Shown piece after piece: positions 5,022 to 51,740 of a DNA stretch of 64,000 nt. Position 1 is the stretch's first letter; every line of letters starts with the position of its first letter. The position numbers and the translations under genes were made by a program. Below the pieces are notes generated by a model. It did no database searches. It saw nothing but the letters and a program-made list of their open reading frames with translations, and was not told the DNA's origin. Source of the DNA: Dudresnaya verticillata (lineage: Eukaryota); NCBI GenBank assembly GCA_977862235.1, contig OZ374560.1:248001-312000 (forward strand), in the 5' to 3' direction.

Positions 5022-5100
5022 TCTGAGAGTGAGGTTAGAGAGACTTCGGCGCTGTTGGATATGGCAAGATGCTTGGGGTACTCGAGCACCAGAGACTGAT

Positions 5101-5107
5101 ATTTATA
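5101..5107 (-). promoter_or_regulatory. Possible TATA box (TATAAAT) of the MBL-fold gene
   Basis: TATAAAT on the minus strand ~80 nt upstream of the ATG at 5021. Confidence 0.35.
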
Positions 5108-15987: not shown

Positions 15988-16308
15988 TTACCTTGCAACG
16001 CGCGGTGGCTTCCTCACCTTCGGAATGCTGCCCCTCTGGTGACTTCGGTGGTGTCCGAAAGATCTCGCCTTATCGCGGAGCTCGAGCCCCCACAGTAGCG
16101 CCCAGATCCACCCGATGAGGAAAACCGGCGCCGTAAGCGCCTGCAGCAGGCCGACAAGAACGGTCTCGGCCTTACATGAGGAGGCTAACACTGCGGAGAT
16201 GAGGGTACCCAGCCCTGGTAGGAAGAGGTTTACCACGATTACCACTGTTGCTGTGTTCGAGGAGATGCCGGGCGGGAGCCCGTATTGTAGGAAAGCGCGT
16301 CCAGACAT
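15988..16308 (-). CDS. SPEC3/Stum-family small membrane protein (106 aa from MSGRAF)
   Basis: VVIVVNLFLPGLGTLISAV...VGLLQALTAPVFLIGWIWALLWG matches the Spec3/Stum signature N..(I/L)PG.GT...G.LQ......GW.W...WG. The start was placed at the ATG at 16308; the ORF is open to 16494. Confidence 0.75.
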   Translation of the reverse strand: MSGRAFLQYGLPPGISSNTATVVIVVNLFLPGLGTLISAVLASSCKAETVLVGLLQALTAPVFLIGWIWALLWGLELRDKARSFGHHRSHQRGSIPKVRKPPRVAR

Positions 16309-16857
16309 AATGTCGTAGGTGAATGGCGATGTTGTGGAGACGATGGGGGTAGGGTTTGCGCAGGAGCGCCACCGGGACCGAGTTGTGTTTGTAGTGAAGC
16401 TCTTATCACGTGAGGTCCACCAAGCTTGCAGAAGACATGTTTGGCAAGGGAGCCGCGGGACAATGTTCGTCTGGATGGCTATAATGCCATCCAAAATGAC
16501 GAGGCTTCCTATCTAATTGTATCGATTTTTTTCTTGCGTTATTCTGATTTCGCCATGCATAGTGATCCGATTGGATCACGGTCATTGATAGCTAGGCGAG
16601 CCATTTGTCAGTGGCCACATGTAACACTCTGTTGCCCGCTGAGGGGCACGTTCGGTCCTGCCGCGTTAGCCCTGTGTCCCAAAAGGGCCCTCTTTGCTAG
16701 AGTCCTCCTGGCGTGCGGCAGAACCTATCTCTCAACTGCCCGCAACGGCAATGCCCGGTCCGGCCCGAAGGGACCGAAGGGACCCAATAGCTAACACTTC
16801 CCTGGCATGCGGAGGAGTGGGAGGTTACCGACATTTAAATTATTACTGGCAAGAAGT

Positions 16858-16970
16858 TGAAATCTAGTGAGATCCACAAACTTCCGTAACGGGCAGCTGG
16901 CCTGCACGGAGTGAGTGCGCCACTAACTCCACGGGGTGGTACAGTAGTTCGCATTGAGATGTGAGAACGG
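16858..16970 (-). mobile_element. Old LTR F (related to family A LTR), left fragment; host of element C
   Basis: tgaaatctagtgagatccacaaacttccgtaacgggcagctggcctg...ctccacggggtggtacagtagttcgca aligns to the LTR A start; the sequence resumes at 52523. Confidence 0.7.
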
Positions 16971-17134
16971 TGCAGTGTAAATCTCCGAATGAGGCTCGCA
17001 ACCAACACAACCCACGAGTCCGACATGAAAAGGAATCCGCGGTGACGCGTATGAGCGCGTCGGCGCGTGGTAGGGTAGAGCAAGGGGAAGGCCCCAGTGT
17101 GCGGACTGTAAACACACACCAAAGCCCGTGTGAG
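16971..17134 (-). repeat. Element C 3' LTR, piece 1
   Basis: Homologous to 51741-51904; interrupted by element B at GTGAG. Confidence 0.85.
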
Positions 17135-17866
17135 ATTAGTAGAATGACTTCTAAGTCAACGAGGACAACAACACAACAAGACAGCTGTCTTAGAAGATAC
17201 TCCACTGCGTAGATGGTCACTCGGTAAAGGGGTTTGGTAGAGACTTGATAGGGCTTAAAGCCCTAAGAAAACGGGGAAAGGGAAGGCGAATCCAGCCGTG
17301 TAGAGCAGTTCGTCGTATACGACGGGGCTTGTAGACGCCCAAGAGGGATTGTAGCAGTAGCACCGTAAGTATAACAAAGCAAAATGGGGAAAACCCAAGG
17401 CACAGACCGCTGCCGGTTTAGTGCCGGGCCCCTGCTACTCAGGGGCCCCATAAATACGGCGAGAGCCGAAAAGGTGCTACTCGCTCAGTTAGAGTTCTAA
17501 TGCTAATAATTCGCTACTACTTTACAATACATTCATGATACGTCCTTAGATAGGAATGAGTGGTCAGGCCACGAGGCGAACGTGGCGTCACTGTCAGGGG
17601 CCGCGGGGCAAAACTCCGCCAGCAATTCATAGCGCACTGATGCGGTCATAGTTAATCCCGAAATGGCATAGTGCCATATCACCTGGAGCAGTGCGCCTTA
17701 CAGATTAAAGCTGTACACGTGTTCCCTTACAGCGCAGGAGCGCTTCAGCAATTAAATCAATCTGTAAGCGAGCGATATCACCCGGGCGGTTGTGCGCCTG
17801 AACGTTCTTACAGAGGACTCGTGTCCACGTGGCTCCTTACAAGAAGTCAACGCCCGTTGTACCACA
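17135..17866 (-). repeat. Element B 3' LTR (~730 bp)
   Basis: Direct repeat of 35518-36247; left TG mutated to AT; ends ttgtaccaca; next to the PPT. Confidence 0.9.
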
Positions 17867-17879
17867 CGGCCCCCTTCTT
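17867..17879 (-). other. Polypurine tract of element B
   Basis: Minus strand AAGAAGGGGGCCG abuts the 3' LTR. Confidence 0.75.
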
Positions 17880-17937
17880 AAAACTAAGCGACCACGCTCA
17901 GTCCACAGTTGACAGCAACGCCGTTTCCAATTACATT

Positions 17938-18612
17938 TGTGGTGTAGTGAAAACGCACGAACTCCGAGACGGAGATCTGGCCTGACTTTCCTTAACGGAC
18001 GAGAGCAACACTACCTCCACGGGGTGGAAGAGCAGTTCGCACCGAGACAGGAGAACAGCGAGCGGCTAACCGAGACGGATATTGGGAAGCAACAGACAAG
18101 GGGGTGGTACAAGTGCCGGGACGGACTCCGTAACGGTGGTGGTGGTAGACCGCAACGGGCTCGGCGCGGGGAAAACCGTAAAGGATTGGGCTAAGGTTGC
18201 TTACCCGTTTACCTTAGGAGCCGCTGCGGTGCCGCCCTGATATACAAGTCAGGGTGGCACCGAGCGGTCCGGTCCGTGGGGGCCAGACCCTAGTGGTATG
18301 GACCCATGGTGGAATCGGCCCTGCTGGTCCCAATCTCCGACACGGACATGCGCAGCATTCTCATTGGCTGGCGCACTACTCTACATACTGTACAGATACT
18401 CACTAAAAATAAAGAATAAACACTACAAATACTCCGGTATGGTTGTTGCGCTTCACTGCTGTACAGCAATGCGTACCGGCGTACAGCAATGCGCACAACA
18501 TCCGACACGGTTACACGTTGCCAGATCATCAGCGTGGCGTATTGCCACATCACCCGTTACGGTTGGCTCGCCGTCGGTGGGCCGCATGCGCGCCACGGCT
18601 CACTTCACCACA
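17938..18612 (-). repeat. Element A 3' LTR
   Basis: Direct repeat of 28647-29321; 14 differences counted by eye. Confidence 0.95.
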
Positions 18613-18627
18613 GACTCCCCTCCTTAA
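18613..18627 (-). other. Polypurine tract of element A
   Basis: Minus strand TTTAAGGAGGGGAGTC abuts the 3' LTR. Confidence 0.8.
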
Positions 18628-21600
18628 ATGGCGCCACGTCCTCGGGCGCCCACCGTAGCGGATCACTATCGCTTCTCCACCCACGAACACACACACACCC
18701 GATACGGAAGTGTTCTCATCAACCCCTTCCCCTTTGTGCGCGCTTCTCCCACCATGTCAGGGGAGAAGACCAAGCGCTCACCGTCGCCCTTTCAACCGAC
18801 ACGGCGTTCCCGCGCTGCTTCCACTACTCGGGCGCAGGGCGCGCGAACCGTTACCGATGCTTCGACGCTAGCGCCTGCTTCTTCCTCGGCGGCAGCGACG
18901 CGACCCGCGACGGGCGGTCGTACGAGTATTTCCGTGACGGAACCTTCACCGGCTCCGTCAGCGAGCCGAGGGTGGTCGGTCTATGATCCGAATCGGTTTG
19001 CTGCAAGCGCAGCCACAAGGACCGTGCTACCAGGGAGTGCAGCGACCCACCGTGACGGAGAGGCGCCAACCAAGGAGCGCGATGATGCGTTCCGTCCTGG
19101 TGGCGAGGAGCTCAGCTTGGCAGACCTACCGGCCATTCCGTTACGGAAACCATCGACACCGGTATCGACGCCGAGTCGTAGGATGGTTTCCAGTCCACAT
19201 CCTTCCTCAAGTACACCGAGACGGATGCGTGGGCCCCCGCAAATCAACCCACCTGCACCGGGGCCTTGGTGGCCGGTGGTGCATACCCGTGACGGAGAGG
19301 GCCCTGCCCCGAGTGGTTATTGGCCGGAGCACCACTTTGATCATCGCGCGGGGCGACCGGCTAGAACCGATGCGGAACGGGCAAATATTAAGCCCCCGAT
19401 GACGGTGGACCTCTTCATTGAGAAATATCCAACCGTCTTGGAAGCAAGAAGGTACAAGGCCGTCATGGCGCAACCCTTCAAGGCGAATCAACGCATTGGC
19501 GTTGTTCCGAATCGGAGAGAATTTGTGTGGCAAAGCCGATGGGTGCATGGCTATTGTCAATCAAGGACCTCTATCGTTTCGGATTTGTTGTGGTATCGCT
19601 GCCATGGGGAGGTAGGATATACCGCAAAGGTGAGTCACCTGTTGGCCACAGGTTTCCGTCTCCGGGGTGCGCCGGTCGGAGTGCAATTCAATTGCTTCGA
19701 CCGCCCCTATGACCAATCGGTATATTGGTTCCGCTATGCCGATGGGTGGAAGGACGATGCCGCGACGGAACACCGTTTGCGAACTCGTTCCCGTGACGGA
19801 ATACAAGTTGGTTCGCCAATCCTGCATACGTGGAACACTAAGGAGTTCTTCCATCTTCCGTATCGGGTGCGTCGTGAATTGTACCTTACGGCTCCGTCAT
19901 GGTGGGCGCGTTATGAGGTGACCCGTTGGTTGTCTGTCCCCACGCCGTCCGTCGTAGCGTACTTCTCGGCGGACTTACTCACCGAACGGGAGTGGAATCA
20001 CAAGCATCCGAACGGAGAACGTCCCCCGAATTAAGATCAGCTCGATGTACTGTGGCGCATCTTCCGATCGGAATGGGCCATGCTGGTGCTCTTCTCGTGG
20101 CTCCAGGTGGCCTATTACGGAGTACAGTATAACACCAAGTTAGCTGACTGGCGAGGCTTCCCACGGGATGAGGATGACCTGCCCGGGGGAGATTGTGGCC
20201 GTATTCTTCAACTTCCCGTAACGGTGATCGCCCTAATTCGCCAAGTCGGCGTAGCCGATTTGGTGACGGGGTCGGCGTACCCTCTCCATCGGGTTGAGCG
20301 TCTTTTATCCGTACACGGATAGCAGGATTGGGCACGCACTCCGGGCTTCTTGGGGTATAATTGGGACGACGACCGTGTCCTATCGGTGCCCCCGCTTAGG
20401 CCCGGAGTGCGTGAGCCATATTTCCTTCATCGAGAAGATCCGCGTCCGGAATGGTCGGCCTTAGAGGTGCAGGCCCATCGGGACTATGCCCCTCGCCAAG
20501 CACCAAGGGATGCGTACCGTGACAGTTTGGATGCGGCTGAAGATTGGGGGAGCTGTCAGGAGGCAGCGTGGTGTCCGCGTACAATCGACCCACGCGATTC
20601 CGTTACGGTGAGGCAGCAAGAAGCTGACCCCTTCTTGGAAGAACAGGAGGAGGTCACGCCCGTCGCCTCAATGGCAGCGGGTAGCGAGAAGACACCCGCT
20701 CCAATCCTTCCGGTGGTCGCGACACCCACGTCGCGCGATGTGGATCGTGAGACTACTACTCCCGTATCGGATAAGGCCCCAACGCCCATAGGCGTGGTTG
20801 CGCCGATTATGGCGGTACCCAAGCCTGTGCCACCATCCGAGAAGGGGAGCTCAAAGGAGCAGACCGTTGCGGAAGTGGCGCCGGATACTGTGCCGGCGGC
20901 ACTGTCTCCTGCGACGCAAATGCCTGCTGCCGCTGAACCGCTCCCGCCAAGTGCTCCGCTGTTAGCGCCCACTCCCACACCAGCTGGGAATGCGGCGTCG
21001 ATCACCGTATCGGAAGTGGCTGCAACGCGCCCAAGTGTTGGGGCAACTGGAGAGAAGCCCTCGGTTCTCGCGCCAAGTCCTGAACCGTTACGGAAAAGCG
21101 ATATCGCCTCGCCAGAAGAGGACACGGGTCCACCGCTGCGGAAGGACGTACCTTCACCCGAGTCGGGACCATCCGTATTGGTGGTTTCCTCAACGGAACA
21201 TTCACTCGAAGCCGGGGTTAGGGATAAGCCGTCGATCTCCCCTAAGGTAGAATTTCAAGAAGATGAGGATCCCCCCGTTACGGTTCCGGCTCATTTAGCC
21301 GCTACGGAAAGTGGGTTACAGGTGCTACCGGGCATTTGCCGTACGCAGCGCTTCCGATTGCCAGGATCCGTTCAGGAAGTGTTACCCTTAACGGAGGGGC
21401 TGATGGAACAGGTAATTCATCTCCGCGCGGTGGTCCGTCGTCAGCATCGGCGCATGGACAGTGCGGTTCGCGTCTTGGGAGACACTACGCAGCGCGTATT
21501 CCAATCGGATCCGAGTGGGGAACCCGGCTTACGAACGGGTCAGGGGAGCAACGAGGAAGATACAGTTTCCCCTGCTCCCAAACGGCGTCGACGTAACTCT

Positions 21601-21654
21601 TGGAGTTACAGTTCGACGATCTCCTTAACGGTTTCCATTATGCCTCGATCTTAG
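18628..21654 (+). pseudogene. Antisense ORF of element A (~1000 codons, unknown protein, two in-frame stops)
   Basis: ORFs 18628-20034, 20080-20322 and 20350-21654 are all in one frame, broken only by TAA 20032-20034 and TAG 20320-20322. The termini are S/T/A/P-rich and flank an aromatic-rich core. Confidence 0.8.
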
Positions 21655-21703
21655 CTTGCGATAAACGTTGTATGTTCTCACACCCCAGCACTCCAACTGT
21701 CCG

Positions 21704-24700
21704 TTACGGTGAGTGACGTGTTGGATTAGCACGTCGCCGTGGCTTACCCTTAGCGGATGTCTTTTTCCTTTGCTTCCAATATCGGTAGATGAAATTCTGC
21801 GGTAACTCCTCCGCGGGCTCAAAAGTGTCCTGATCCGGAGGGTAACCATACCAGCGGGCTTTGTATGTCATCCCAGTAGGTTCGTCGCGGTGACCGAAAA
21901 TCTTGTCAATCACATATTCCGTATCGGCTTGCAGTGGTTCCATCGCGGAGGGAGTAGTACCTTCAGAAGGAGGTACTACTGTAGTACCTTCTGGATGTGG
22001 CACTACTTCCCCGTAGACGGTTGATGGCGTGACAGGCGGCACTGTTAAGGGTGCCGGCTGAACCGCAACTCCGATCGGAACCTTCGTGATGCGATCGATA
22101 CTTACGGGGATCAATACCCCTTCCTTGCGGATTGTAACGACATGTTCCGTTGCCGATTCCACTTCATAATGCCCCGTGGCTTTCGGAAGGAGTTTCTTCA
22201 TTTCCTGAGCCACCTCGCCCACATCGTCCGGTTTGCCTTCCAATCGGTCCCGCTCACGGCGTTCGGCCGGCCGCAAGTTATGGGGCGGCCGGTCGACATA
22301 GACTTGATCTCCACTACGGATTATGGGCCTAAAGCGCACCTTACGGTCAAACAGTGCCTTGGCTTTTTGCTGAGCCACTGTCTGCTTCGTGCGCGCTGTC
22401 TGGAGCGCGTACCGTAAACGGCGCATGGTGCTCCGCTTCTGTAGCACCGGGGTCATACGTCCTTCCGTAATGGTTTCTTGATGCTCGACAGGAGCCCCTC
22501 GTACAACAATGTCCGATGGGTGGCGTGTCAGCACCAAATCAAATGACGTTGTTTCCGTAATACGGTGTACCTGCATGTTGTACGCCTATGTCAACGGTTG
22601 CAGGTACAAATCCCAATCGGAGTGATGATCCTCATTGTAATGGCGCAATCGTTGGGCGATTGTCTTATTAAATCGCTCAGCTTGCCCATTTGTCTGCGGA
22701 TGGTAGGCAGCGGTAAGTAGATGCCTGACTCCGAGTAAGGAACACACTGCGTCAAAGAACTTAGCAGTAATCTGCGGTCCGTTATCGGTTAGGACAAATT
22801 GGGGTGCGCCATACGCATACACCCAAAAGTCCAGAAAGGCGTTAGCCACAACAACGGCTGTTGTTGTCCGTAACGGAATACAGCGCGTCTGCTTAGAGAA
22901 CCGATCGGTTATTACCAGAACGTATACATAACCCCGTTTTGTCTTCGGAAGTGGCCTGAGAATGTCGATAGCGACAAACTCCAAGGTCCACTAGCGGGGA
23001 AAAGTTTCATAAACCTTTGATTCCGAAAGCGGGTTCCCTTCGTCTTCACGCAGGAGCGACATGTCCGAACGGATTCAAATACATCGTTGGCCATATGAGG
23101 CCAATAATAATCCTGTCGGAGTGTATAATACATCTTAATTCCGCCTGGGTGACCCGACATCAGGGTGTAGTGGGATAAATACAACACCCGTCCACGGAGT
23201 TCGCTTGGCACCACCTTCTGCAGAGCACCATCCAATTGGGACTTGCGTACCAAGAATCCGTTACGGTCATGGTCAAACTGTGATCCAGGGGAGCCTACCG
23301 TATCGGCTTTGAGACGACAGAAAGGGTCTCTGGCTTGCGCTTCGAGGAACTCCTCCCTGGTAATTGTCTCATCCTTAACGTCGGATTCTTGGATTACAGT
23401 AAACCGTGACGGTATTGCGTCGGGCTTGTCGGGGGAGGCGGATGAACTCCCACTGGCGGGCTCCACGGCGCATATTACGTTATTTTCCGTAGCGGTTTCT
23501 CGTGATGTGGCCCAATCGGTTAAATAGACTCCATGCTCATATAATCCGTCGACGGTATTTTCGGCGATAAAGCAGGGTATCTCTTCATCCAAAGGTCTAT
23601 CGTCACCGCCATCCGTTCGGAGCCGCGACATCCCATCGGCGAGTTGATGCTTAATTCCAGGACGGTATTGCACCTCAAATTCAAATTCCGATAGGCGGAG
23701 CCTCCACCTGGCAAGGCGGCCAGATGAGTCTGCGAGGTTCAGGATCCACCGCAGGGCATCGTGATCCGTTCGGAGAATAAACTTGTCACCGTAAAGGTAG
23801 GGTCGGAGTGTTAACATGCTCCAGACCACGGCTAAGCATTCCTTTCCGGTTGTCGTATAATTTTTCTCCGCATCTGTGAGGCTTCGGCTCCAATATCCAA
23901 TAGGGAAGTGATCGCCATTCGGTTGTTCCTGCAGAAGGACACAGCCGACTTGGTGGTCACATGCGTCAGTGTCCAACGTATATTTATATCCGTGACGGGG
24001 TAGAGCCAATATAGGTGGAGAGATAAGGCGTCTCTTCAGTTCCTCGAAGGCTTTATATTCCGTATCGGATAATATTCCAAACTCAACGGGTGAGCCCTTG
24101 CCGGTTTTCTTATTTGGCGGTGCTGAAATCCGAGCGAAGTTGGGTACAAAGCGACGATACACGTTGCACATTCCCAAGAAGGATCGCAATTCCGTTTGGT
24201 TAGTCGGCGGCTTCGCGACCTTATCGGATTGGATATTCCGATTATCCACTTCTAATTTTCCGGGACGGATAACATGCCCCAGGTATTGTACAGACGCGTT
24301 GAAGAAGTCACACTTTGACAATTTCAACGTTACCCCAGCGGATCGTAAAAGCGTAAGGACTTCCTTCAAGTGGTGCAAATGTTCCGTAACGGTTTTTGAG
24401 TAGACAATTACATCGTCTAGGTAGACGAGGGCAAATTGCCATTTAACCGTAGAAAGGATTATATCCACTGCCCGTTGGAAGGTTGCCGGTGCATTTTTCA
24501 ATCCGAATGGCATTCTCCGAAAACGGTATAAGCTGAAATGGATAGTGAAGGTACTTTTGTCCCTTTCCTCTTCCGGAATCTCGACTTGCCAATATCCGCT
24601 ATTGAAATCCAGGGTGGTAAATACAGTAGCTTCCCCAAGGGAATCTATGCACTCATCCATCCTGGGTAACGGATATGAGTCCCTAACCGTTACGGAATTG

Positions 24701-25976
24701 AGCCTTCTATAGTCAACACAGAACCGCATGGTGCCGTCCTTTTTTGGAACGAAAACCACGGGGCTTGCCCACTCCGATGAGGCTGGTTCAATTACCTTAG
24801 CGGAAAGCATGCGATCGATCTTTGTCTTTTCGAGATCTCGCTGCTTATGTCCGGCACGGTATGGGGCTTGATATACTGGCTTCGCTCCGGGAGTTAACTC
24901 GATCCGGTGCTTGGCAGCTGTAATGTTGCCTAGATCGCCACTCCACATCGACTAATGTTCCTCGAGTAGGGTTAAAATCCGTTTGCGGAGCGATGCTTTT
25001 TCTGTTCCGATCTGGACTTGATCCTTCCAGTCGGTAGTATTTGTATTTTCCGTTACGGGTTTGCTTACTTCCTTATCGTGAGGGGAGATGCTGCTGGCCT
25101 TTTCGGAGGTAGGGTTAGAATTAAATGATTGAATAATTCCTCGCCCCTCCTTAAATGGAGGTATACCGTCAACGGTAAAAATAGCAGAAGGGGCAGCAGT
25201 AGCGAGGCCCACGACAGTATATTTGGGCAACCGTACCGGCTTGTTAGAAAAATTAGAGACCCAGATCCGAAACGGTTTGTTAGGTACAACATCCATAATA
25301 CCATTAGCCATCAACGTAAGGTGCTTAAAAGCCGGCTTAGGATGATTTTGTAGAAAGCATAACCCACCCGTGGGGTATTAACCGTTACGGTGGTTTGAGT
25401 CATAGGGGGAATAAGGGTAGATTTTGCGAAACGAATTTTCTGAGAAACCGTAGCGGTAGAAAGAGGTGAGGGCTGTAGGGTTGCAGTGGTTCCCGTCTTC
25501 GGAATTTTGGCTTGACCAACAAGGGATACCGGTGGGTAATGATGAAAAACAACTTTCCGTAACGGAGGGAGGATTGCCTTGACGTAGCGGTCGATGAAGG
25601 TAGTTCCCAAAATACAGGGAGCCGCCAAGTTCGCGACCACTAGAAAATGGACGCGAGCACGGAGCTCTCCGATACGGACGAAAAGTTGGATCTGACCAAG
25701 AGGGCGTATAGCGCGATTAGACGCATCCCGTAATATAGGACTGGCTGCTGGGTGTATGAGTGGGAGTCATTGGCGCGGAAGGCGCCTGGAACTAATGAGA
25801 TTGGGCCCAGCGCCAGAGTCTAAGACCGAGATTAAAGGAAGCATCACTCTATCTGTCCGTCCCACGGTAATTTGCATCTTGTAATTTTGATGTTGCATAA
25901 AGCAGATAGTATCATTGGTCTGATAAGCCAATGGGAGTTCCGTAACGGTATCTCGCCGATCCCCTGGCGGGTCCAC
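21704..25976 (-). pseudogene. pol: Element A pol: aspartic protease, RT, RNase H, integrase, chromodomain (disrupted)
   Basis: LDSGAG (protease); RFCVDYRRLN, MPFGLKNAPATFQ, YLDD (RT); TDACD...RTDH (RNase H); HPG...CRSC, AIDIL, TDNG, HPQTNGQAERFN (integrase); EYVIDKIFGHR...YKARWYGYPPDQDTFEP (chromodomain). Confidence 0.95.
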
Positions 25977-26034
25977 ACTCGCGAGAGGTGGAACGCCGTG
26001 AGGCGGGGATGGCGGCGCCCTTACGCATCCCCCC

Positions 26035-28498
26035 TTGAGTTTTCCGAATTCAAGGTTGCACCAGTCGGATCCGCCTCCATGGGCTCGCGCAATTCTGCGA
26101 GTTCCACTCCGTCATGGTCCTCCACCGATAGTATCAGGGCATTCCGTTGCGGAGGGGGCGTATGCGGCCTGCCCCGATTCCCTTGCGGATTCGAACTGGT
26201 TCCTACTACGAACCTGCGACCTACAGGGTAGTGCTTCTGGAAGTTGCGCTCGCGCTATTCCATAAGCCTAACCCGATCGGAGTCATGTATCCAGGGGCAA
26301 ACAACGTGCTCTGGCGAAAGGCATATGCGACAGTTACCACTTCCGTAAAGGCGTCGGACCCGAGGATCCGACTCATCCCGTAACGGAGGTGCTGGTTGCT
26401 GCTGTCCACGCCCATCGTGGGCATTATTTCCGTAACGGTGACTCGGCTGCTGTTGGAGGCCAGGAGCCGGGCGAGATCCACCATAGGGGGACCTTGCGCC
26501 CGTGGCATCCTGGGCGGAGTAGGGTGGACGCTTTGCGGGGGCGAGGAGTACGGGGTAGAAAAGGTAACCCCCGTGCTCGTTCCCGTAGCGGCACCGTGGC
26601 CTCCCTCGACAGCTAAGACTTGAGCATCCGTAACGGAAGGATCTGCTTGCGGATCATAGTGTACATCCGAGACGGAATCCAGCGATAACACCTTAGACGG
26701 ACGTGCTTTAGTGCACCCATCAAAAACGTAAGCCGGAACGGTTTGGCGTCGAGATGCCCGATGGGATTGACCCAGGCCAGTCGCGTAGCGAGTGATGGCC
26801 TGATAATCCAGCTGGGAATGCGTCGCCAGATAAGTTCTCATCTGTTGACGAGTGCCCGGTAGGAGTCCTTCAACGAACAGTGACTTCAATGCCCGATCGT
26901 AAAATACTGTACCGCAACGGAGAGCCTTGGCCCAGAGCTGGTTCGAGAACTGCTCTTCCGTCATGGCGGATGTTTGCCTGAAGTTGCTGACATCCGTATA
27001 GGCTTCAGCAATCACTTCATCCGTAGCGTAGGTTCTCAATAAAACGTTCACCACCTCGGAATATGTGCGGAGCATCTCGGCCTGCTCCACGTCAACCGCC
27101 ATGGTACCTCCAGCAAGCCTAGCCTGTAGAAGGGCTTCGGCCTGTCCTTTAAGGAAAAACTGGAAGCACCAGACGGCAACCCCTTCGGCGATGCCGTTGA
27201 TGTTACAACCGTCACGGAACTTGGCGAGAAATCCCAAGACGGTAATAGGGTCCGTCCCATCGAATGTATGGGACGACATCTGGACGTGGAGTTTCTTCCG
27301 TATACGGCTCATGTTTTGTGAGAACTTAGAGCCGTATGTCTTACTCCTCTTATCCAATCGGTAGGTGCGGTAGTCCAGCGCCTTGACAAACTTGTCATGT
27401 AGCGGCCGGAATACCTTCACCTTTCCTGATTTGGCACCGTGTTTTCTGGCCCGGTGCCTATTCTCTCTATCCGTTACGGAAGAACTCTCTGAGTCTGAAT
27501 CCGTAGAGGTAGAGGAGTCATGCCTTTTTTCGCGTTTCCGCGATCTTCTGTTTCTCCTCTTACGGCGGCGGTGTTGGCTACCCTCTGAGCTGCTCTCATT
27601 GGATTCCATACCGGATTGGTGGCGTCGTCGCTGGGTGTGGTCGCGCATGTGCGACCGACGGGGAGGGTCAGAGCGGGAGTGTCGGGCATCTCGTTTATGC
27701 CGACCTCGACCGGTCCTCCGACTCGGATGGGGTTAGCTGGACGCATCGCTGAGATGGTCGCTGCCTCCACCTGATCGAAAGGAACGGTATAGCGCTCTTG
27801 CTGATAGCGCCCTGGCGTAGGCACATCTATGTGTCCAGGAGAATACCGTAACCGTGGCTGAGTGTGTGTTGGTCCCATAGGGGCGTGTTGATGTTAAGAA
27901 TCCGTTACGGGATCCGGTGGCAGTGGCCCAGAGGGTACTGTGCCCGGCGGCAATCCCATAACGGGGGTTGTTGCGGCTGCTGCGTTCTTCCCTCGACCGG
28001 GAATTCATTCCGTAACGGTGGTTGCTCAGTGAAAGCTTCCGTAGCTGGAGGCCTTGCCATGCCGGGAGAAATCTGTCTCTCGAGCTCGGCGGCCACCTTT
28101 TCCTGTAGGATCAAAGCTTGCACTATCCGAGGAAGGTGCTGCTCCAGATAGGAATTAACCAAAGACGGAACAGTTTCCGAGAGGGATATCTCCACCTCTT
28201 TTACCATTCCAGGTTGTACTTCCAATCGGAGATGCTCTAACACCCTATGAAGGACCTCCGACAGGACCCAGTGGATCCGATGGGATTCCGGCTTGGGTTG
28301 CGGAGCTGCCTTCTTGGAGGCGTCTGATCCGACACGGGAACGGGTAGCTTTACCAGCAGCAGCCTTTAGGATGTCTTCTGGGTTCTGCACTCCGGACCGG
28401 ATTTCACCTCCTTCACTGCGCAAACTGCGCGCAGCGGGGGTAGTGTCACCCGCTTTAGGTTCCGTAACGGGAGGGTCTGCGTTTTCTTCGTTCTGCAT
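26035..28498 (-). pseudogene. gag: Element A gag (frameshifted)
   Basis: ORFs 27905-28498, 27474-27878 and 26221-27648; LDYRTYRL and FDGTDPITVLGFL motifs are shared with gag of B and C; FRQTSAMTEEQF resembles a retrotransposon gag motif. Confidence 0.8.
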
Positions 28499-28622
28499 GA
28501 TACCTTAACGGAACACAACGGTTGTTCTTGCTTGTCTATCCAATATTCCGTAACGGGTTGTCGGTACAGCCGAATTCCTACCATAGCGGATTTCGACGGC
28601 TGTTTCTTCCAACCGTGACGGT

Positions 28623-28641
28623 GTTCTAGGTCGGGAGACCA
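28623..28641 (-). other. Primer-binding site of A (TGGTCTCCCGACCTAGAAC)
   Basis: Starts with TGG 5 nt inside the 5' LTR; the same motif occurs in B, C and D. Confidence 0.85.
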
Positions 28642-28646
28642 AAAGA

Positions 28647-29321
28647 TGTGGTGTAGTGAAAACCCACGAACTCCGAGACGGACAGCTGGCCTGACTTTCC
28701 TTAACGGACGAGAGCAAAACTATCTCCACGGGGTGGTAGAGCAGTTCGCACCGAGACGGGATAACAGCGCGCGGCTAACCGAGACAGATATTGGGAAGCA
28801 ACAGACAAGGGGGTGGTACAAGTGCCGGAACGGACTCCGTAACGGTGGTGGTGGTAGACCGCAACGGGCTCGGCGCGGGGAAAACCGTAAAGGATTGGGC
28901 TAAGGTTGCTTACCCGTTTACCTTAGGAGCCGCTGCGGTGCCGCCCTGATATACAAGTCAGGGTGGCACCGAGCGGTCCGGTCCGTGGGGGCCAGACCCT
29001 AGTGGTATGGACCCATGGTGGAATCGGCCCTGCTGGTCCCAATCTCCGACACGGACATGCGCAGCATTCTCATTGGCTGGCGCACTACTCTACATACTGT
29101 ACAGATACTCACTAAAAATAAAGAATAAACACTACAAATACTCCGGTATGGTTGTTGCGCTTCACTGCTGTACAGCAATGCGTACCGGCGTACAGCAATG
29201 CGCACAACATCCGACACGGTTACACGTTGCCAGATCATCAGCGTGGCGTATTGCCACATCACCCATTACGGCTGGCTCGCCGTCGGTGGGCTGCATGCGC
29301 GCCACGGCTCACTTCACCACA
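28647..29321 (-). repeat. Element A 5' LTR
   Basis: TG...CA, flanked by the PBS and TSD ACATT. Confidence 0.95.
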
Positions 29322-29393
29322 ACATTGACCGTTGAGATTTCAATCTTAGTCCGTTCATTGACCCAGTCAACGCAGTTGGCAATCCGCCTCCCA

Positions 29394-31180
29394 ATGTTTC
29401 GGGTTCCCACCTGTCTCGACCCGCGTCGAAGGCCAAATTAGGACGGCCATAGCCGCCGTCGGCGGCGGCGCAACTTCGCGACTGGTATCGATTGCGAGGG
29501 GAGCCTGACTGGCGAGCGCCTATTAAACCGACTGGCACTCTTGTCCCTTTCCCACTCTCCGGGGGCAAGACCGGACGAGACCAACCTCCCTTGTCTTCCG
29601 GGCCGGATATCAGTGCTCTGTCGACCCCCTTCCAACCGCGCCGGTGGGCGCCGCCTCGTCGCGGTGACTCGTTTTTGCGACCCACGTCGCGTCTGTGCAC
29701 CCTACCGGCTGGCGCCGCCGATTGCGACTGCAGGCCTCCTTGGCTGCTCCAGTGCGGTTGTGGGTGGGTGCCACTTGCGCCGGAGGCTCTTGCGCGAAGA
29801 ATTTGCCAAGTCGCAGGAGACTTTTCAGGTCACGCTCGCTGTCTCTGCGGAGCGGCTTTGGAGCCGACGGTCAGAAGGCCTCCGTGCCTTACGAGAATCA
29901 CTCAGGTCGTGCTCGTCGAGTCTTCGGATCGGCTCTGGAGCCGACGTATCATTTGAATTCACGTCGGGGCAATGGCGCCCCCGCTAGCGTATGGAGCTGC
30001 CGGCTCGAGTGAAAATGTGCTCGGGCACGAGTTTGGATGCGGCAGGTGTGCCGTTTGCTGTTTCTCATAGCTGCGACTGGCTCCTGCGTACCGACCTTGC
30101 ACACCTTAAGCTGCGGGCAGGTGCCAGTCGCGAGGAGATTCGACGTCGCGGAAGTCGTATGGCTCAAAGTCGCGTTTGGAACACCCTTATGCGAGCTCGG
30201 TTGAGTATCCTAACCGGTACGAACCGCTTCTTACCCCGTCTCGATGGCGATGCCAATACCCTTCAGTGGGATCTCGCCTATGTGCGATTCCGGCATGAAA
30301 TGCCTTGGAGCAACACCATAGCTCAGAAGCTAGCTTCGACCGCCAACGCACTGGAAGAGATCCGCCAGAGCGGCGAGTGGTATCTAAGTATGGTTATGCA
30401 CGAGCGGCCGCTTATTCGTGCGGGCAGGGATAATTTCCCGTATACTTTGGCTCGCATCGTGAGATGGGATGAGTCGTCAAACTGAATTATGCCCTTGACA
30501 ACCCGCAGACGGCGAAGCCGTTAGAATATACTATCTTCGAGCATCGTGAACGTCATAAGACGAGTTGCTTGGTTCCTTGCCATTGCCAAGAGGTATCGGC
30601 TATCAAGCCGGCATTCTACAATGGGAAGTATCCCCATGTGCTGGACGAGCACAAGAACTATGAAGTGTCCTATTCCATGCCAGTTGGTATTCCCACCATT
30701 ATTGCCTATTTGGGTCTATAAATTATGGCGAAGGCCATGGACGATAGTGTGCTGTGGAGCATCTTCAGACATGAGTGGGTCGTCTTGGTAGCCCAGACCC
30801 TTATCTATGAGGTCCTTCGTGGCCTATTATTCTTCATTGGGCAGCCGCTTCGGGTGGCGATTAGGGCCCTGGGCCCAGCGGGGTTGACCGCTAACGACTC
30901 CGACGCTGAGGACTTGGAAGCCCTGCTTTTTGTGGAGCGGATCAAGTGGAGTCGTATCTCCAAGCGCAATCGTCATCTCCCAGAAAACACGGGGCATATG
31001 ACGCCGGTCTTTGACCGCGGGGATTGGGTCGACTTCGACCCCCTCAAGTGGCATCCTGTTTTGCCCGACTATATCATACAGCCTGCGCCGTCCGAGGAGA
31101 GTCCTCTCATTCTTGACGAAGGCATTCGTATGACCGGCGTCACCACTGGCTGGGTTAGTGCGAAATGGCATGAGCCGTGA
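29394..31180 (+). pseudogene. Antisense ORF of element B (disrupted, 3'-truncated; start approximate)
   Basis: Fragments 29541-29987, 29991-30485 and 30725-31180; contains NYEVSYSMPVGIPTIIAYLGL*IMAKAMDDSVLWSIFRHEWVVLV, homologous to the antisense ORFs of A and C. Confidence 0.7.
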
Positions 31181-32200
31181 CCTTGACGGTTCCTAATTTC
31201 CCGTCCCACATGTCGGCGAAAGGACGCAACATTTTGCGAACGCGGCGTCTGTCAGACGGGGATAGGTGTTCCAATTCCAAGTCGTCGACTGTGAGCTCCT
31301 TTGTGGCGGTTTTGACGCCTACTTTGGCGTTGGTCGCGCCAAGAGCAGGCGCTAGCCCTGCCCCTCTACATCGAACGATGTATCGGCAGGAGGACTCGAG
31401 TCCTGTGGCTTCGGGTCCGTATTGTCGGGGACATCGGCGATGGAAAGAGTATAAACCGGCGTGGCCGTCGGAGCGGGAACGGCGCGACCAATGACTTCGT
31501 TCTTGGTTAACCGTTGCACTCGGGGAGAGAAGTTAGCGATCTTAACACGGAAGAGAACGTTCTCTTGTATCTTGACGATTCCATTCGTGACGACCACTTT
31601 CTGACGGTCGTAGAGGCGTTGGAAGGAATGCAAGAAGTGGGTTCCTTTGGCGGTGCAGGAAACCGCGACCCAGGTTTCAGAACCGGGCTGTAAGTTAGTT
31701 GTTTGAGCAACCCGTACGAGGCGCGACGTAGTTAGTGGAGGGACCTCCATGGGTTCGCCAGAGCGTGTGGCTCTCGGGATTCCGCATCTTCGTCGTATAA
31801 TGGGATGTACCCAACCGTCTCGTAAGACTACGTGTTGCTTACGCACTCGAAGTTGTTCGACGCGGCTATCGATATAGGTGCATCCTAGTATCATATCGAC
31901 GGCTAGCGCCGAAACCACGACGAAGGGTTGACGTACCGTGTAGATTCCAATCCTGACGACGAGGGAGATCATTCCTGATGTTTGTAAGCGGTGGCTTGAT
32001 GCCGAGGTGAGGTTGACGATCGACAGGGTCGAGGAAACCTTCTTCCGGTCGTCCAAAGAGAGCACGTCAGCTCTGATGAGATTGGGGCCTGCGCCCGTGT
32101 CCAGAACTGAAAGTACTTGAGTCATATGTCCAACAGAGGTCCCAACGGACGCGAAAACGTTATAGTTGTATCTCTATAGCGCGCACACTGGGTCCTCAAT
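31160..32200 (-). pseudogene. pol: Element B protease and first residues of the RT region, then deleted
   Basis: LDTGAGPNLI (31352-32125); LTVDDLELEHL...MWDGKLGTVKVTAHAI ends abruptly at ~31163. Confidence 0.85.
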
Positions 32201-32393
32201 GTGCTCCTCATACTTGCACCCGGGGGGTAAGCCCACGGGGCGTGCTAAAACCTTCTTTGGAAGAGGAAGCGGGAGTTCCCGCGAGACCGATCGTTAGGGT
32301 GAGGGAGGACATAGGAAATGGCATTCCTCGGAGCGATCTGGGGTTCCGATACGACTGGAGTCGCCCAGTGGACCGAAACCGGTTCCCCCATTG

Positions 32394-35108
32394 CTAGTTT
32401 TTCGGCCTACTAGCAGGCGACTGCGGCAGCGGTGGAGGCGGCGGAAGGCTTCTGGAGCCTGGTCTTGGCGACCGTGGCGCCGTCGGCGGATGTTTCGGAG
32501 TGTCCACTGGATGATTCAATCCCCCTTGAAATTGGACATGGCCATTTCGGCTTGGGGCAGACCCCAAATTTTGAGGAGGCCCCCTCGATGGCCCTGCTCC
32601 ACGTCCTGATGACGTATAATCGGGCTGTTCCCTACGGGTATTCCCCGGGGCGAAATCAGGTAGTCGCCCTATGGTGGCTAGCCATGCCTTCTTTTCGCGA
32701 GACAGTTGATAAAACTGCTGGCTTTTTAGCACCTCAAATGACGGTTCATTCGTACGAGCCAGATATGGGCAATTCGGCTTTTTATGGTCCACATTCCCAG
32801 ACACTCGAAGCATATATCATTTGGCCTGTCTTCGACAGCCACCCAACCGGGACGTTGTGTCCTTGTGGGCTCAGCCCACGCAGGCATCCTGTGGTTGTAG
32901 TTCTGAAGGACTGTGTCCACAGCGCCATGGTATGGGTCGTCACTCAACGCGGCAGACCACGAGTCTAATTGGGTTACGCTGGACAGAGGCGCTTCGTGAT
33001 CAATGGCTGCAACCACTGCATCCTCACTGTCGGCCTCAGAACTGCTGCTCTTCGAGGAATCGGTGTCTGAGGACTGTTGAGTCCTATTTTGCCGAATGAG
33101 GAGCGCTCTTCCAGACTTGTGTGTCTTGACCTGTGCCAGTATTTTGCGAGGTAACGAGGAGCTCGCCTTCTTGAGACGAGCACCACCCGCAAGGGCTCGG
33201 TGCGAATCTCCCTGAGCTGTCGCTAACTCGATATAGTCGGCTAGTCGCGCGGAGCGCGGGTCCAGAGAGGATGTATTTAGAAGCGGTTTCACCGCGGGTA
33301 GAAGCCCGCGTATAAAACACGTTGTCAAGTCCTGTTCCGAGTATACCCCCGCGACCTTTCGCGCCTTATTCTGTAGACATCTTGAAAAAGAGACTTCGTC
33401 TTCCTCTGACCCTTGGGTCATCGTATCCATTTCATAAGAAATCTGTTGAATGTAAACGTCTTTGGCGTAAGTCCGGAAGAGGTAATTGATGGCCTCGGGC
33501 CACTCATTGAATCTACCATTGTCGTCGCCGGCCGCGTCGAAATTTGCTTCGAACATGTCCTTCGCGTCCTTTTCAAGGAATTCAGGTATGACCAGGATGG
33601 CCGCTCCTTCGCTCACTTGGGCTTGCTCCAACTGTCTCTTCAAGGTGGCTAGAAAGCCTATGATTGACACTGGGTCCCTCCCATCGAATCGCCGAGTCCT
33701 CATTACGGATTTAATCCGCTTGATCTTTTTCGAGGTGGCTTACGTTACCTCGGGCCCACGATATGAATCGACATTCAGTAATCGGTATCTCCAATACGAA
33801 AGTACTTGTATGAACGCCGGGTTTCGTGGAGTTAACTCCTTAATTCCCGCTCGACCCTTCCTCGCCAGGAGCTCCAGGAGGGTCTGGAGAGACCCCGTGA
33901 CGACGGCTCGTCCTCATCCGATTGCATCGGCGCCGGGTATGAGGCGTTTCGACGCTGCCCCTCACCATTGTGGCTTGAAAGCCGGTCTTGACGGGAGTCC
34001 CGTGTATTACGACATACAGTGGGACCGTGCGATGATCGGCAATCACACCGGGGGTGCGTGTACTTCCTACGACTAAATTCGTCTTGTCCAGACTCCCCGT
34101 CCGATTCACGTCTTGGAGACGTCCTGCGAAGGTCCCTCGTGCCACGGGGAACGGGGGAACGTCGCCGCTCAACCTCAGGGATTAAATCCCTCTCGCAGCT
34201 GCGTCGTCGCGTCTTGTCTTCTAGCAACGTTACCTTCCGCTTTTCAGCTTCAAGCTCTTGTCTCAGGAGCTCAATAGCTCTGTCTTGTTCGACACACCTG
34301 GTGTCGTCTACGTTCCGTCGAACGTCTTCAATAGCCAATACGGCTTTTTCTCGAGTTAGGTCGGTGACCTTGGTTAGCGTATGGAGGTTTCCATGGACGG
34401 CGTCCAATTGGTCACCTAATGAGTCCATTTGTGCTGGCAGGGTTTCGACCCTCTCTTCTTCTAATCCTCTAGGAGGACCTTGCCGGAATCGAGATTCCAT
34501 CTCTTGTTGGCACTTAGCCAAAAGACGGTCGTCACGGCGCGCCGACGCCTCGTCGATACAACTCTTGACCTTTGCAAAGGTGTCGTCGGCTTGACTTTCC
34601 AAGAGCGCCACGACACTTGTCGTCAAGGAACGCTCGATTCCCAACTCGACCATTCGTCCGATTTATCTTGCAGTGAAACATCGGACGTCTGACGAATTGT
34701 ACTTCGTTTTCGTCGGCATCCCCACGTCCGGGGGCGCCAAGAATTCTTCTTCTAGGGCCGGTCCGCCCTCGGCTTGCATACTGGCAAAGGCCATTGACGG
34801 CGGCAACATTCCAGGGTTCGAACCCTCATTCTCCCCAATATCCCGGGGACTCCTCTTGCGGTTCGAACCGTGTTCTCTCCTTCTGGGACCTGGTCCCCAC
34901 TTGGGCCAGGTACTCCTCCTCCGGCCGGGGCGACCGTCACTTGAAGCGGGCGTCCCGGACCACCCGTTAAGGGGTTTACTACGAGAGCGGTGGTGGTCGC
35001 ACGGGTGCGAACTCCCGTAGTAGTTCTCGCGGAGGCAATACTGCCTGTACGGCTTACTCCCCGGCTCGATAGTCCGGGTCGGGTAGTATCACCAGTAGAA
35101 GTGGGCAT
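32394..35108 (-). pseudogene. gag: Element B gag (disrupted)
   Basis: Coiled-coil ORF 33832-34653; LSYWRYRL; FDGRDPVSIIGFL (32726-33703); frameshifted zinc knuckle CFEC...H...CP. Confidence 0.8.
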
Positions 35109-35497
35109 TATTGCCGCTATTATTCTCGTCTCTGCCGATGAGGTAGCGGGGACTTCTTCCCAAGCTTCTCGACGGTCAGAACCGTAGGATTAAACGTGTT
35201 TTCTCAGTTTGCACGGAAAACCTGTTGAAGCGGGCTCAACCCGGGCGTCAATCCGCCGTTGAGGGAGACTTCTGGGGACGGTTTTAAAACCGTTAAATGT
35301 AGTTTGCATGCTCACAAGATTTGACGTTACTCCGGAGCTTGATGTAAAGCGTAGAAACCGTCGACAAATAGACGACTAGGGTTTTACCCTTCGATGTTCC
35401 AAGTCTTGGGACTTCAACGGACGGTATATCCTGTCTTGAATCTTTTGATTTGGCCCGTCGAGGGTAATGTAGAAAAAGGGTCCGACCCTGAGAACTT

Positions 35498-35516
35498 GTT
35501 CTAGGTCGGGAGACCA
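35498..35516 (-). other. Primer-binding site of B
   Basis: TGGTCTCCCGACCTAGAAC 1 nt from the 5' LTR. Confidence 0.85.
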
Positions 35517-35517
35517 C

Positions 35518-36247
35518 TGTAGTAGAATGACTTCTAAGTCAACGAGGACAACAACACAACAAGACAGCTGTCTTAGAAGATACTGCACTGCGTAGATGGT
35601 AGCTCAGTAAAGGGGTTTGGTAGAGACTTGATAGGGCTTAAAGCCCTAAGAAGAGGGGGAAAGGGAAGGCGAACCCAGCCGTGTAGAGCAGTTCGTCGTA
35701 GACGACGGGGCTTGTAGACGCCCAAGGGGGTTTGTAGCAGTAGCACCGTAAGTATCCAAAAAGGGGAAACCCAAGGCACAGGCCGCTGCCGGTTTAGTGC
35801 CGGGCCCCTACTACTCAGGGGCCCCATAAATACGGCGAGAGCCGAAAAGGTGCTACTCGCTCAGTTAGAGTTCTAATGCTAATATTTAGCTAATACTGTA
35901 CAATACAGTTACTGTATGATACGTCCTTAGATAGGAATGATTGGTCAGGCCACGAGGCGAACGCGGCGTCACTGTCAGGCGCCGCGGGGCAAACATCCGC
36001 CAGCAATGCATAGCGCACTGATGCGGTCATAGTTAATCCCCAAATGGCATAGTGCCATATTACCTGGAGCAGTGCGCCTTACAGCTTAAAGCTGTACACG
36101 TGTTGCCTTACAGCGCAGGAGCGCTTCAGCAATTAAAGCAATCTGTAAGCCAGCGATATCACCCGGGCGGTTGTGCGCCTGCCATTCCTTACAGAGGACT
36201 CGTGTCCACGTGGCTCCTTACAGGACGTGAACGCCCATTGTACCACA
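35518..36247 (-). repeat. Element B 5' LTR
   Basis: TGTAGTAG...TACCACA; repeat of 17135-17866. Confidence 0.9.
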
Positions 36248-36737
36248 GTGAGCGCGCAGTGAGCCGGAAGACGAGGGCTCTGGCACAACAGAAGCGTGTG
36301 AACACGAAGGTAGAAAGGTGTCAGCACCACAGGCGTACGTAGCCCAGCTCCGCGATGGCTTCACTCGCCAAGCGCACGGCGTTAGGGGTACCTTAAGTGG
36401 GGAGCCGAAGCTTCGTTGGGTTTACTGTAGGAGGGTGGTCCTAGCCCCTTAAGTCCCACCGCCGGCGGCGGCGCCGCGGCGGTGGCGACTAGGGCTACTG
36501 TACACTGGTAAATAGACTAACACTAGAGTACGATAAACTAGCACTACAGTAGCACAGTGTCGTTGCTGAACACCGACACCAGCACGCTGTAAGACTTGCC
36601 ATGAAGCGTGCGTGTGATGAAGCGTGCGTGTGCGCGTGTGAACGTGTCACGCGTGTTGGGCGTGTCTTGCGAGCACTTGCATGGCGGTGGCTGTAAGGCG
36701 GCGAGTGCGGCCCAGTAAAGGCGACGGCGGGGGAACG
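36248..36737 (-). repeat. Element C 3' LTR, piece 2
   Basis: Homologous to ~51900-52370. Confidence 0.85.
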
Positions 36738-37956
36738 TGTGGTGAAGTGAGTCGTGGCGCGCGTGCAGCACGCCGAAGGCGCGCCAACCGTAACGGGTGA
36801 TGTGGCAATACGCCACGCTGATGATCTGGCAACTTGTAACCGTGTCGGGTTTGTGCGCATTACTGTGCACTGGTATGCATCGCTGTACTGTAAGTGGAGC
36901 GCACCAACCGTAGCGGAGTATTTGTAGTATTTATTATTTATTTTTAGTGAGTATCTGTACAGTGTGTTGAGTAGTGCGCCAGTCAATGAGAATGCCGCGC
37001 ATGTCCGTGTCGGAGATTGGGACCAGCAGGGCTGATTCCACCATACGACCAGACCACTAGGGTCTGGCCCCCACGGACTGGACCGCTCGGGGCCACCCTG
37101 ACTTTTATAATAGTTGTAAGGAAGTACCTTTTAGATCTCTTGTGAACTCAAAGAGTGCACTCAATGAAAAAGCCACAGAGCGGGTACCTGGTAGCGGTGG
37201 TAGAGCAGGAGGAACCCAGAGGGAAGACGAGGGGACGTAACCGGATTGGAAGCACGATACTGAAGGTAGTTCACTGGGCGGGCGGTTAACCGGGCACGGG
37301 TGACAGGTGTGCTGCGGTGCCGATAGCTTGGAGACGTAGTTGGGGCCGGAATGTGCTTGCCTTTACTGTACAGTGACCGCTACGGGAGATGGCCCTATAT
37401 GGTACTCCGACTATCAGGCAGCACCCCTCATACTGGGCTATATACACGCCCCCTATCCTAAGCTATAATTTCTAAAATAAATAGACAGATACTAAGCTAC
37501 TGACCTACAGGGTGACACTTGGACCAATCATAGACTACCCGTCTTGTCCCTGTTGGTGCCCTATAGGTAACGCCATTTCAGGGCATACACGAGGGCAGAG
37601 GGCCCACTTCTGTAAGCCCTTCACTGTATTACAATAGGGCGGCACCGCAGCGGATCCTAGGGTAAACGGGCAAGCAACGCTTGAGTCTCAATCCCACTGT
37701 AGCTCTTTCCTTTACGGTTTTCCCCGCAACGAGCCCGTTGCGGTCTACCACCACCACAGTTACGGAGTCCGTCCCGGCACTTGTACCACCCCCTTGTCTG
37801 TTGCTTCCCAATATCCGTTTCGGTTAGCCGCTCGCTGTTCTCCCGTCTCGGTGCGAACTGCTCTACCACCCCGTGGAGGTAGTGTCTCTCTCGTCCCGTG
37901 TAGGAAAGTCAGGCCAGCTGTGCGTTATGGAGTTCGTGGGTTTTCACTACACCACA
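36738..37956 (+). mobile_element. Solo LTR A' (family A, opposite orientation), interrupted by solo LTR D
   Basis: 36738-37114 and 37634-37956 are the reverse complement of LTR A; TG...CA ends; flanks gaacg/attga do not match. Confidence 0.88.
37115..37633 (-). mobile_element. Solo LTR D (519 bp)
   Basis: TGTAAG...ATTACA; TSD atagt/atagg; reverse-complement homolog at 55063-55573. Confidence 0.85.
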
Positions 37957-38018
37957 ATTGAGCGCGCGAAAAAGGGGCTATCATCCCGCTCTGCGGGGAG
38001 CCCGGGCGTTGCACCAGA
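37957..38018 (-). repeat. Element C 3' LTR, piece 3, followed by PPT (38019-38030)
   Basis: Matches ~52460-52522 (gagcccgggcgttgcacca); minus strand AGCGAGGGGGTG abuts it. Confidence 0.8.
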
Positions 38019-51716: not shown

Positions 51717-51734
51717 TTCTAGGTCGAGAGACCA
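51717..51734 (-). other. Primer-binding site of C
   Basis: TGGTCTCTCGACCTAGAA next to the 5' LTR. Confidence 0.85.
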
Positions 51735-51740
51735 GAAATG

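Follow-up and report, generated by a model that had tools for sequence, protein, structure and literature searches.

The window analysed here, a 64,000-nucleotide stretch of Dudresnaya verticillata contig OZ374560.1 (assembly GCA_977862235.1, positions 248,001 to 312,000), contains a nest of long terminal repeat (LTR) retrotransposons whose innermost member, referred to below as element A, is a Ty3/gypsy chromovirus that carries a short palindrome, CCGTNACGG, dispersed through its LTRs and its genes. In window coordinates, element A is organised as follows.

17938-29321, minus strand: element A, Ty3/gypsy chromovirus (Pfam matches, LTR comparison)
17933-17937 and 29322-29326: two copies of a 5-bp target-site duplication (TSD), ACATT (sequence)
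17938-18612, minus strand: 3' LTR with TG...CA ends, 2 perfect palindromes and 9 CCG-N3-CGG sites (alignment, counts)
18615-18625, minus strand: polypurine tract (PPT; sequence)
18628-21654, plus strand: antisense open reading frame (aORF), a single frame, about 1,008 codons long, lying between pol and the 3' LTR, with 9 perfect palindromes (ORF analysis)
19324-20418, plus strand: conserved core of the aORF protein, about 365 amino acids (relatives, AlphaFold2 model)
21704-25900, minus strand: pol, with protease, reverse transcriptase (RT), ribonuclease H (RNase H), integrase and chromodomain (about 21773-21916), and 9 perfect palindromes (Pfam)
26221-28504, minus strand: broken gag region in two frames, 27905-28504 and 26221-27732, which hold 7 perfect palindromes (weak Pfam match)
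28625-28641, minus strand: primer-binding-site-like (PBS-like) sequence beginning TGG, near-identical in elements B and C (sequence)
28647-29321, minus strand: 5' LTR with 1 perfect palindrome and 8 CCG-N3-CGG sites (alignment, counts)
18128-28845: the dispersed perfect CCGTNACGG palindromes, 33 in number (sequence count)

With its order of protease, RT, RNase H, integrase and chromodomain, its LTRs, PBS, PPT and 5-bp TSD, element A resembles the Ty3/gypsy chromoviruses (Metaviridae), whereas its antisense gene and its dispersed palindrome code lie outside their textbook anatomy. The LTRs are 675 bp long and 97.9% identical to each other, and the 5' LTR has one perfect site against two in the 3' LTR because the counterpart of the site at 18554 is mutated there. 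Pol, which matches RVT_1, RT_RNaseH, Integrase_H2C2 and Chromo in Pfam, is interrupted by several stops and frameshifts, while the Retrotrans_gag match of the gag region is weak (E=0.0045, below cut-off). Among the close RT homologs, those with a name come from Chondrus crispus and Agarophyton chilense, which, together with an aORF homolog in Gracilariopsis chorda, makes a florideophyte red alga the likely host.

Every one of the 33 palindrome positions listed for element A in the preliminary description is exact, and, as also stated there, perfect copies occur elsewhere in the window just at 16884, 36788 and 47776; alignment confirmed that the first two lie in A-related LTR pieces, and the third falls within the RT frame of element C. 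The 16.8 kb of host-like flank in the window hold none. Markov models of orders 1 to 4 trained on element A predict 0.38, 0.41, 1.5 and 4.5 sites (maximum 13 in 150 simulations), and the proposed codon-preserving control bears the enrichment out: synonymous-codon shuffles of eight coding segments give 1.7 sites on average against 25 observed, none of the 2000 shuffles reaching 25 (maximum 7). The broader class CCG-N3-CGG numbers 58 in these segments against 9.4 after shuffling, and 73 against 7.8 expected when the internal region is counted with a single LTR, at this spacing only (81 with both LTRs counted). All three reading frames are used by the coding sites, which read [SPT]VT[EDV], xR[YHND]G or P[LS]R, in line with the earlier remark on their different frames. 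Since the excess survives synonymous shuffling and sits in all three frames, neither protein nor codon constraint accounts for it. Perfect sites are spaced more evenly than random (coefficient of variation, CV, 0.64 versus 0.96, P=0.005). Tandem amplification was considered as a source of the sites and rejected, as TRF finds a single 27-bp dimer in element A.

Two further suggestions of the preliminary description are not supported. The observed/expected ratio of CpG is about 1 throughout, with no depletion, which lends no support to a role of CpG methylation. The Myb-like half-site is not enriched as a monomer (YAACGG outside the dyad, 8 versus 11.7 expected), and the centre base is C or G in 8 of the 32 perfect sites considered, which breaks the AAC of a Myb/MSA-type word.

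The pattern of substitution in the motif bears on the molecule in which it is read. Among 49 one-mismatch sites in element A, the outermost base is changed in none, the second in 3, the third in 13 and the fourth in 33, and the coding variants alone follow the same order (0, 2, 9 and 26 from outer to inner, against 2.5, 5.7, 2.0 and 3.5 expected). The halves are symmetric, CCGT occupying 57/89 left and 56/89 right half-sites with the same spectrum of variants in both; the base before a perfect site is never G and the base after it never C (0/32 each), and half-sites standing alone, outside the dyad, show no enrichment (82 versus 101). Fixed outer bases and symmetric halves are what would be expected if a two-fold symmetric protein read the site in double-stranded DNA, and the motif looks like a dyad of this kind rather than an RNA hairpin. 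Palindromes acting as RNA, through repeated hairpins or intermolecular pairing for genome dimerisation or Gag packaging, would benefit from the fact that any copy can pair with any other, and the 4-N4-4 words of related elements, e.g., GGGG-N4-CCCC, could make tetraloop hairpins. Against such a function, the flanks beyond the core show no excess of pairing (9/32 versus 11.7 expected), complementarity is not in excess at four flanking positions, covariation of the inner pair is not significant (39 versus 35.3, P=0.14), and variants occur in either orientation (CCTT 3/4, CCGC 6/5), those compatible with G-U pairing being rare. Loop-read packaging signals, moreover, show the reverse of the fixed arms and loose centre seen here, and an RNA role is considered very unlikely.

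Element A does not stand alone in the window, and its surroundings extend the comparison to other elements.

17137-36247, minus strand: element B, with LTRs at 17137-17866 and 35520-36247, into which element A is inserted (LTR comparison)
30479-30970, plus strand: remnant of the element B aORF (profile search)
16964-52369, minus strand: element C, with LTRs at 16964-17134 plus 36248-36735 and at 51734-52369, one of which holds the inserted element B (LTR comparison)
39836-40279, plus strand: remnant of the element C aORF, 28.6 bits (iterated profile)
36730-37960, plus strand: older A-related solo LTR with an insertion, 86-90% identity, including the site at 36788 and 9 CCG-N3-CGG sites (alignment)

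A lies within B and B within an LTR of C, each insertion being between different clades, in a tiny sample. The PBS-like sequence is nearly common to the three elements (28625-28641, 35500-35516 and about 51718-51734) despite an A/C RT identity of about 43%, and no self-priming match to the LTR was found. Each element carries a word of its own. Element C has WGGGG-N4-CCCCW (15 versus 0.38 expected; 19 sites over 38.9-52.4 kb, none in its RT frame), and element B a weak dyad, G[AG]CT-N4-AG[CT]C (9 versus 0.57).

The same holds among relatives. A total of 169 loci (L001-L169) were fetched from metagenomes and bacterial genome bins, with red-algal membership inferred from the RT tree, and dyads were scored relative to distant spacings in matched phase; the best null in 166 rows reached a log10 P of -4.9. 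Element A (-43.7), element C (-17.8), L094 (-15.2) and L096 (-11.4) exceed it, as do some 17 weaker rows, a part of which fall outside the red-algal group or are possibly compositional. The clade L093-L096 has CTCNNKMNNGAG (16, 22, 10 and 20 sites, respectively), the clade L011/L016/L020/L021/L040/L073 shares CCNNASTNNGG, and L018/L038/L058 carry words of the GYC-N4-GRC type. Positions outside the search are constrained as well, with K in 46/50 halves of L094 and S at the centre of 17/18 sites in L016 and in L020 alike; in L094 the sites are again spaced evenly (CV 0.65 versus 0.94, P=0.019). Counts of each word in the other clades are near-exclusive, and the word of element A is in excess in no fetched locus (maximum 3 in 79 metagenome loci and 1 in the parts of L080-L169 that were scanned), so none of these loci supplies DNA from the clade of element A itself. 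A search of viral_contigs turned up no close relative, and an Atlas search yielded nothing usable. Direct-repeat dyads are mostly near null, and a codon-shuffle dyad search in the gag-pol frames of 27 elements is clear for element A, moderate for L038 and negative for the others. The phenomenon is general: related aORF-bearing clades carry different palindromes. The earlier proposal of a family-specific DNA label is retained as to the label, as B, C and host-like DNA have almost no copy of the motif (one site), and revised as to the single family, since motif-compatible peptides persist in the sister proteins of element A and indicate a clade-wide word.

Several observations made along the way concern these loci. 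L019 (719-7542) holds 40 CCNCGNGG sites plus a divergent aORF, and L053 and L066, for which little 3' sequence is available, hold 6 and 5 copies of CCTG-N3-CAGG. Above-null dyads outside the red-algal group (L122, L083 and L119: GAGC-N11-GCTC, 6 versus 0.06; AGGA-N3-TCCT, 5 versus 0.11; GCG-N1-CGC, 12 versus 1.7) may represent local repeats or additional instances. One GTDB bacterial bin (L091-L096, L098-L100, L102) includes at least 10 eukaryotic Ty3/gypsy contigs, apparently through algal contamination.

The palindromes might be sites of dimeric host transcription or chromatin factors exploited by each clade, the aORF having another role. Dyad anatomy suits any dimeric factor, a zinc-cluster-type protein that recognises everted CCG-Nx-CGG being an example, and the fixed spacing of a Zn2Cys6-type dyad is matched by the CCG-N3-CGG of element A, enriched at x=3 only; a Pfam scan of 29 window ORFs found no zinc-cluster protein. 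Degenerate sites reach their highest density in the LTRs (12-13 per kb, against 4.5-8.3 inside), and the motif is stable from L093 to L094 despite an aORF identity of 31%, both of which speak for host factors. On the other side, three nested elements in one genome have three words and relatives have at least five more, so that many different host factors would be required; perfect sites are dispersed through the coding DNA of element A rather than clustered at a promoter; the host-like flank has no site, and the Myb monomer is not enriched. Host factors are considered an unlikely explanation.

Selection on individual sites can be followed between L094 and L096, whose gag-pol products are 76% identical and whose four-fold degenerate positions are the same in 129 cases and different in 239. 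Of the sites compared, 7/12 are shared, against 0.34 in shuffles (maximum 3 in 1000), and this retention across near-saturated synonymous divergence points to purifying selection on the sites. In the clade of element A, uncommon residues at motif sites are retained: TVTE at a motif site is present in 4/6 proteins against 0/113 others, and R[YHND]G at two motif sites in 3/7 against 3/113 and in 4/5 against 1/67; the sister proteins of element A (inner clade support 0.989) have motif-compatible peptides at 4/5 RT sites, and changes in them often affect the unconstrained central base (H/Y/N). Mutation bias, quasi-palindrome correction or protein composition could be suspected of having produced, as a neutral by-product, the weaker CCC-N3-6-GGG dyads of the GC-rich loci L026, L029 and L031, which could be compositional, but a neutral origin is at odds with the enrichment of one spacing and one word in element A, with the outcome of the codon shuffles and with the preservation of sites across such divergence. 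For element A and L093-L096 this reading is largely refuted, and as a general account it is highly improbable.

The aORF protein is a strong element-encoded candidate for the reader. Its layout comprises a disordered N-terminus, a globular core, a P/A/T-rich linker, a helical C-terminal segment and a basic tail, PKRRRR, which resembles a nuclear localisation signal; basic tails occur in 12/29 long aORF matches. HMMER finds 97 relatives of the core at E<=0.001, mostly 24-43% identical, including a hypothetical protein of Gracilariopsis chorda, while a word-indexed search among longer proteins had returned none. In A, B and 14/169 loci the first profile finds the aORF in antisense orientation 3' of pol, and in L063 on the other strand; an iterated profile, partly circular because the loci's own matches were added to it, reaches 21 loci and the remnant in C but gives no match in the 89 loci treated separately as non-red-algal. 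The core is modelled as mostly helical (pLDDT 89, pTM 0.91), and its conserved residues, which include many Arg, Asp, Glu, His, Tyr and Trp, may have a part in binding nucleic acid or in catalysis. A PDB sequence search gave no match below E 0.11, Foldseek found none at E<=0.001 in PDB, a BFVD fold search gave none, and the best hits of a wide VIA fold search (Z 3.4 and 3.0) are no clear match; together these fold searches prove the fold neither new nor different. The aORF diverges far faster than RT (31% versus 77% identity between L093 and L094), and between clades with different words aORF identity is 21-26% against 52-60% for RT.

It is tempting to hypothesize that the CCGTNACGG sites are selected self-labels of the clade, docking places for its own aORF protein in an anti-silencing system similar to VANC of plant transposons; as a whole, this proposal is tentative and falls somewhat short of an even chance. 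Its parts differ in strength. That some protein binds the palindromes is very probable; that this protein is the aORF product, and not Gag, integrase or a host factor, is moderately probable; and, given both, the effect would fairly probably be anti-silencing or maintained transcription, by analogy. Antisense transcription from the 3' LTR would yield a nuclear aORF protein that, as a dimer, would bind the clade palindrome along every copy and keep chromatin permissive, as proposed by analogy with VANC (PMC5735166, available text). Copies that gained sites at tolerant codons would be expressed more and spread, and the word would thereby be written through the genes, each site being acquired singly as a point change at a synonymous or tolerant codon, without tandem amplification. 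Protein and word would then diverge together between clades. In Cyanidioschyzon merolae, according to the accessible part of one study, transposable elements are repressed by PRC2/H3K27me3, with 5-methylcytosine at background (10.1101/2022.10.24.513474); because of this, and of the undepleted CpG in the window, the silencing mark that is counteracted could be one other than DNA methylation.

A number of observations weigh against the self-label proposal. The aORF of this copy of element A has two in-frame stops, at 20032 and 20320, no Pfam family is common to more than 1/55 members of the aORF family, and the aORF protein lacks a recognisable DNA-binding domain. Four aORF-bearing loci (L001, L004, L036 and L063) have no dyad above the null. 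The motif is present in 10/19 aORF-positive and 0/5 aORF-negative loci (P=0.047), an association set aside as unreliable, as the rows are related and "negative" loci hold aORF-like frames: L014 and L028 have a probable divergent aORF below threshold, and L019, first scored negative, has a weak one. L093 and L094 share nearly one motif although their aORFs are 31% identical and their gag and pol segments 54-72%, and because Gag and pol are the better conserved in this pair, co-variation of the motif cannot favour the aORF over Gag, integrase or a host factor. The full CCG-N3-CGG set in element A is not evenly spaced (P=0.51), comparison of the LTR of element A with the solo LTR and the fragment shows no significant conservation of sites (P=0.18), and peptide conservation in the clade of element A cannot be separated from shared ancestry.

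Self-labels for an element-encoded protein, whether aORF, Gag or integrase, might also act outside silencing, at the cDNA or integration step, by protecting against autointegration, aiding nuclear import or steering insertions off the own clade. Even coverage of the whole element would suit the coating of linear cDNA, the nested insertions of the window are all between clades, few as they are, and a part in nuclear import has been suggested for antisense aORFs (PMC7264820, available parts). A-related solo LTRs lie in the same nest, however, which speaks against this reading. These processes are not known to require sequence-specific labels, and this account is considered improbable.

The closest functional parallel to the proposed self-labels of element A is provided by the VANDAL elements of Arabidopsis, Mutator-like transposons whose fast-evolving accessory protein VANC is described, in the available text, as acting over the whole element through 8-9 bp motifs that accumulate in its own family, related families having different motifs (PMC5735166); VANC has a MAIN-like fold (PDB 9LNK, PMC13547354, available part). 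Short lineage-specific motifs accumulated within the element are likewise found in element A, and the predicted coiled-coil dimerisation region of VANC21 may be compared with the helical C-terminal segment of the aORF family. In contrast, A is an LTR chromovirus and not a Mutator-like DNA transposon, and its palindromes are single and dispersed in coding DNA (25/33 perfect sites in the coding segments shuffled), whereas VANC words, as far as the available descriptions go, are asymmetric and form non-coding tandem repeats. Pfam, PDB sequence and fold searches revealed no sequence or structure link to the aORF protein. The system of element A would therefore, by analogy, work like VANDAL/VANC without being a member of it.

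A positional parallel is offered by the antisense ORFs that plant Ty3/gypsy elements carry in the interval from pol to the 3' LTR (Retand TRP28, maize Grande gene23, rice RIRE2). [quoted passage not shown] Element A has a conserved antisense ORF in the same position and orientation; those lineages, however, are non-chromoviruses of flowering plants with TRP28 (PF04195), while A has a chromodomain, and Pfam finds no TRP28 in the aORF family. A dispersed cognate motif is not described for them in the available parts of these two sources, and no description of the motif of element A, the red-algal aORF family or dispersed palindromes in LTR elements was present among the literature matches listed (titles and beginnings of abstracts).

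The remainder of the window contains features of other kinds. Two clusters of ATC-NN-GAT (ATCCGGAT/ATCCCGAT), with 8 copies at 38672-38855 and 7 at 53076-53237 in steps of 11-13 bp, lie in related inverted segments (38441-38858 and 53073-53442) of another repeat family, and an LTR-like pair with TG...CA ends (40814-41652 and 60338-61186, 84% identical) has one copy in the 3' region of element C. Pfam matches Spec3 at 15988-16512 (minus strand, E 1e-11) and DUF7869 at 62745-63518 (minus strand, E 5e-41). A host-like ORF of 396 codons at 3912-5102 (minus strand), without a Pfam match at E 0.01, has an HxHxDH motif, presumably that of a metallo-beta-lactamase-fold enzyme.

Extended beyond element A, the self-label proposal leads to a broader possibility, which is doubtful at present: red-algal Ty3/gypsy elements may possess a family of sequence-specific DNA-binding proteins of unmatched fold, each reading the barcode of its own clade, with at least six specificities on one scaffold and an anti-silencing activity that would have arisen independently of VANC and would probably oppose Polycomb-type rather than methylation-type silencing. 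In the literature covered, as far as the available texts go, sequence-specific counter-silencing is established only for VANDAL DNA transposons, and the chromatin of red macroalgae is characterised as unexplored (10.1101/2025.02.11.637652, available part). The aORF clades supply matched candidate proteins together with predicted target words. Selection here writes regulatory words into the codons of RT and integrase, and such codon-embedded words may matter for the LTR-driven growth of genomes in red seaweeds.

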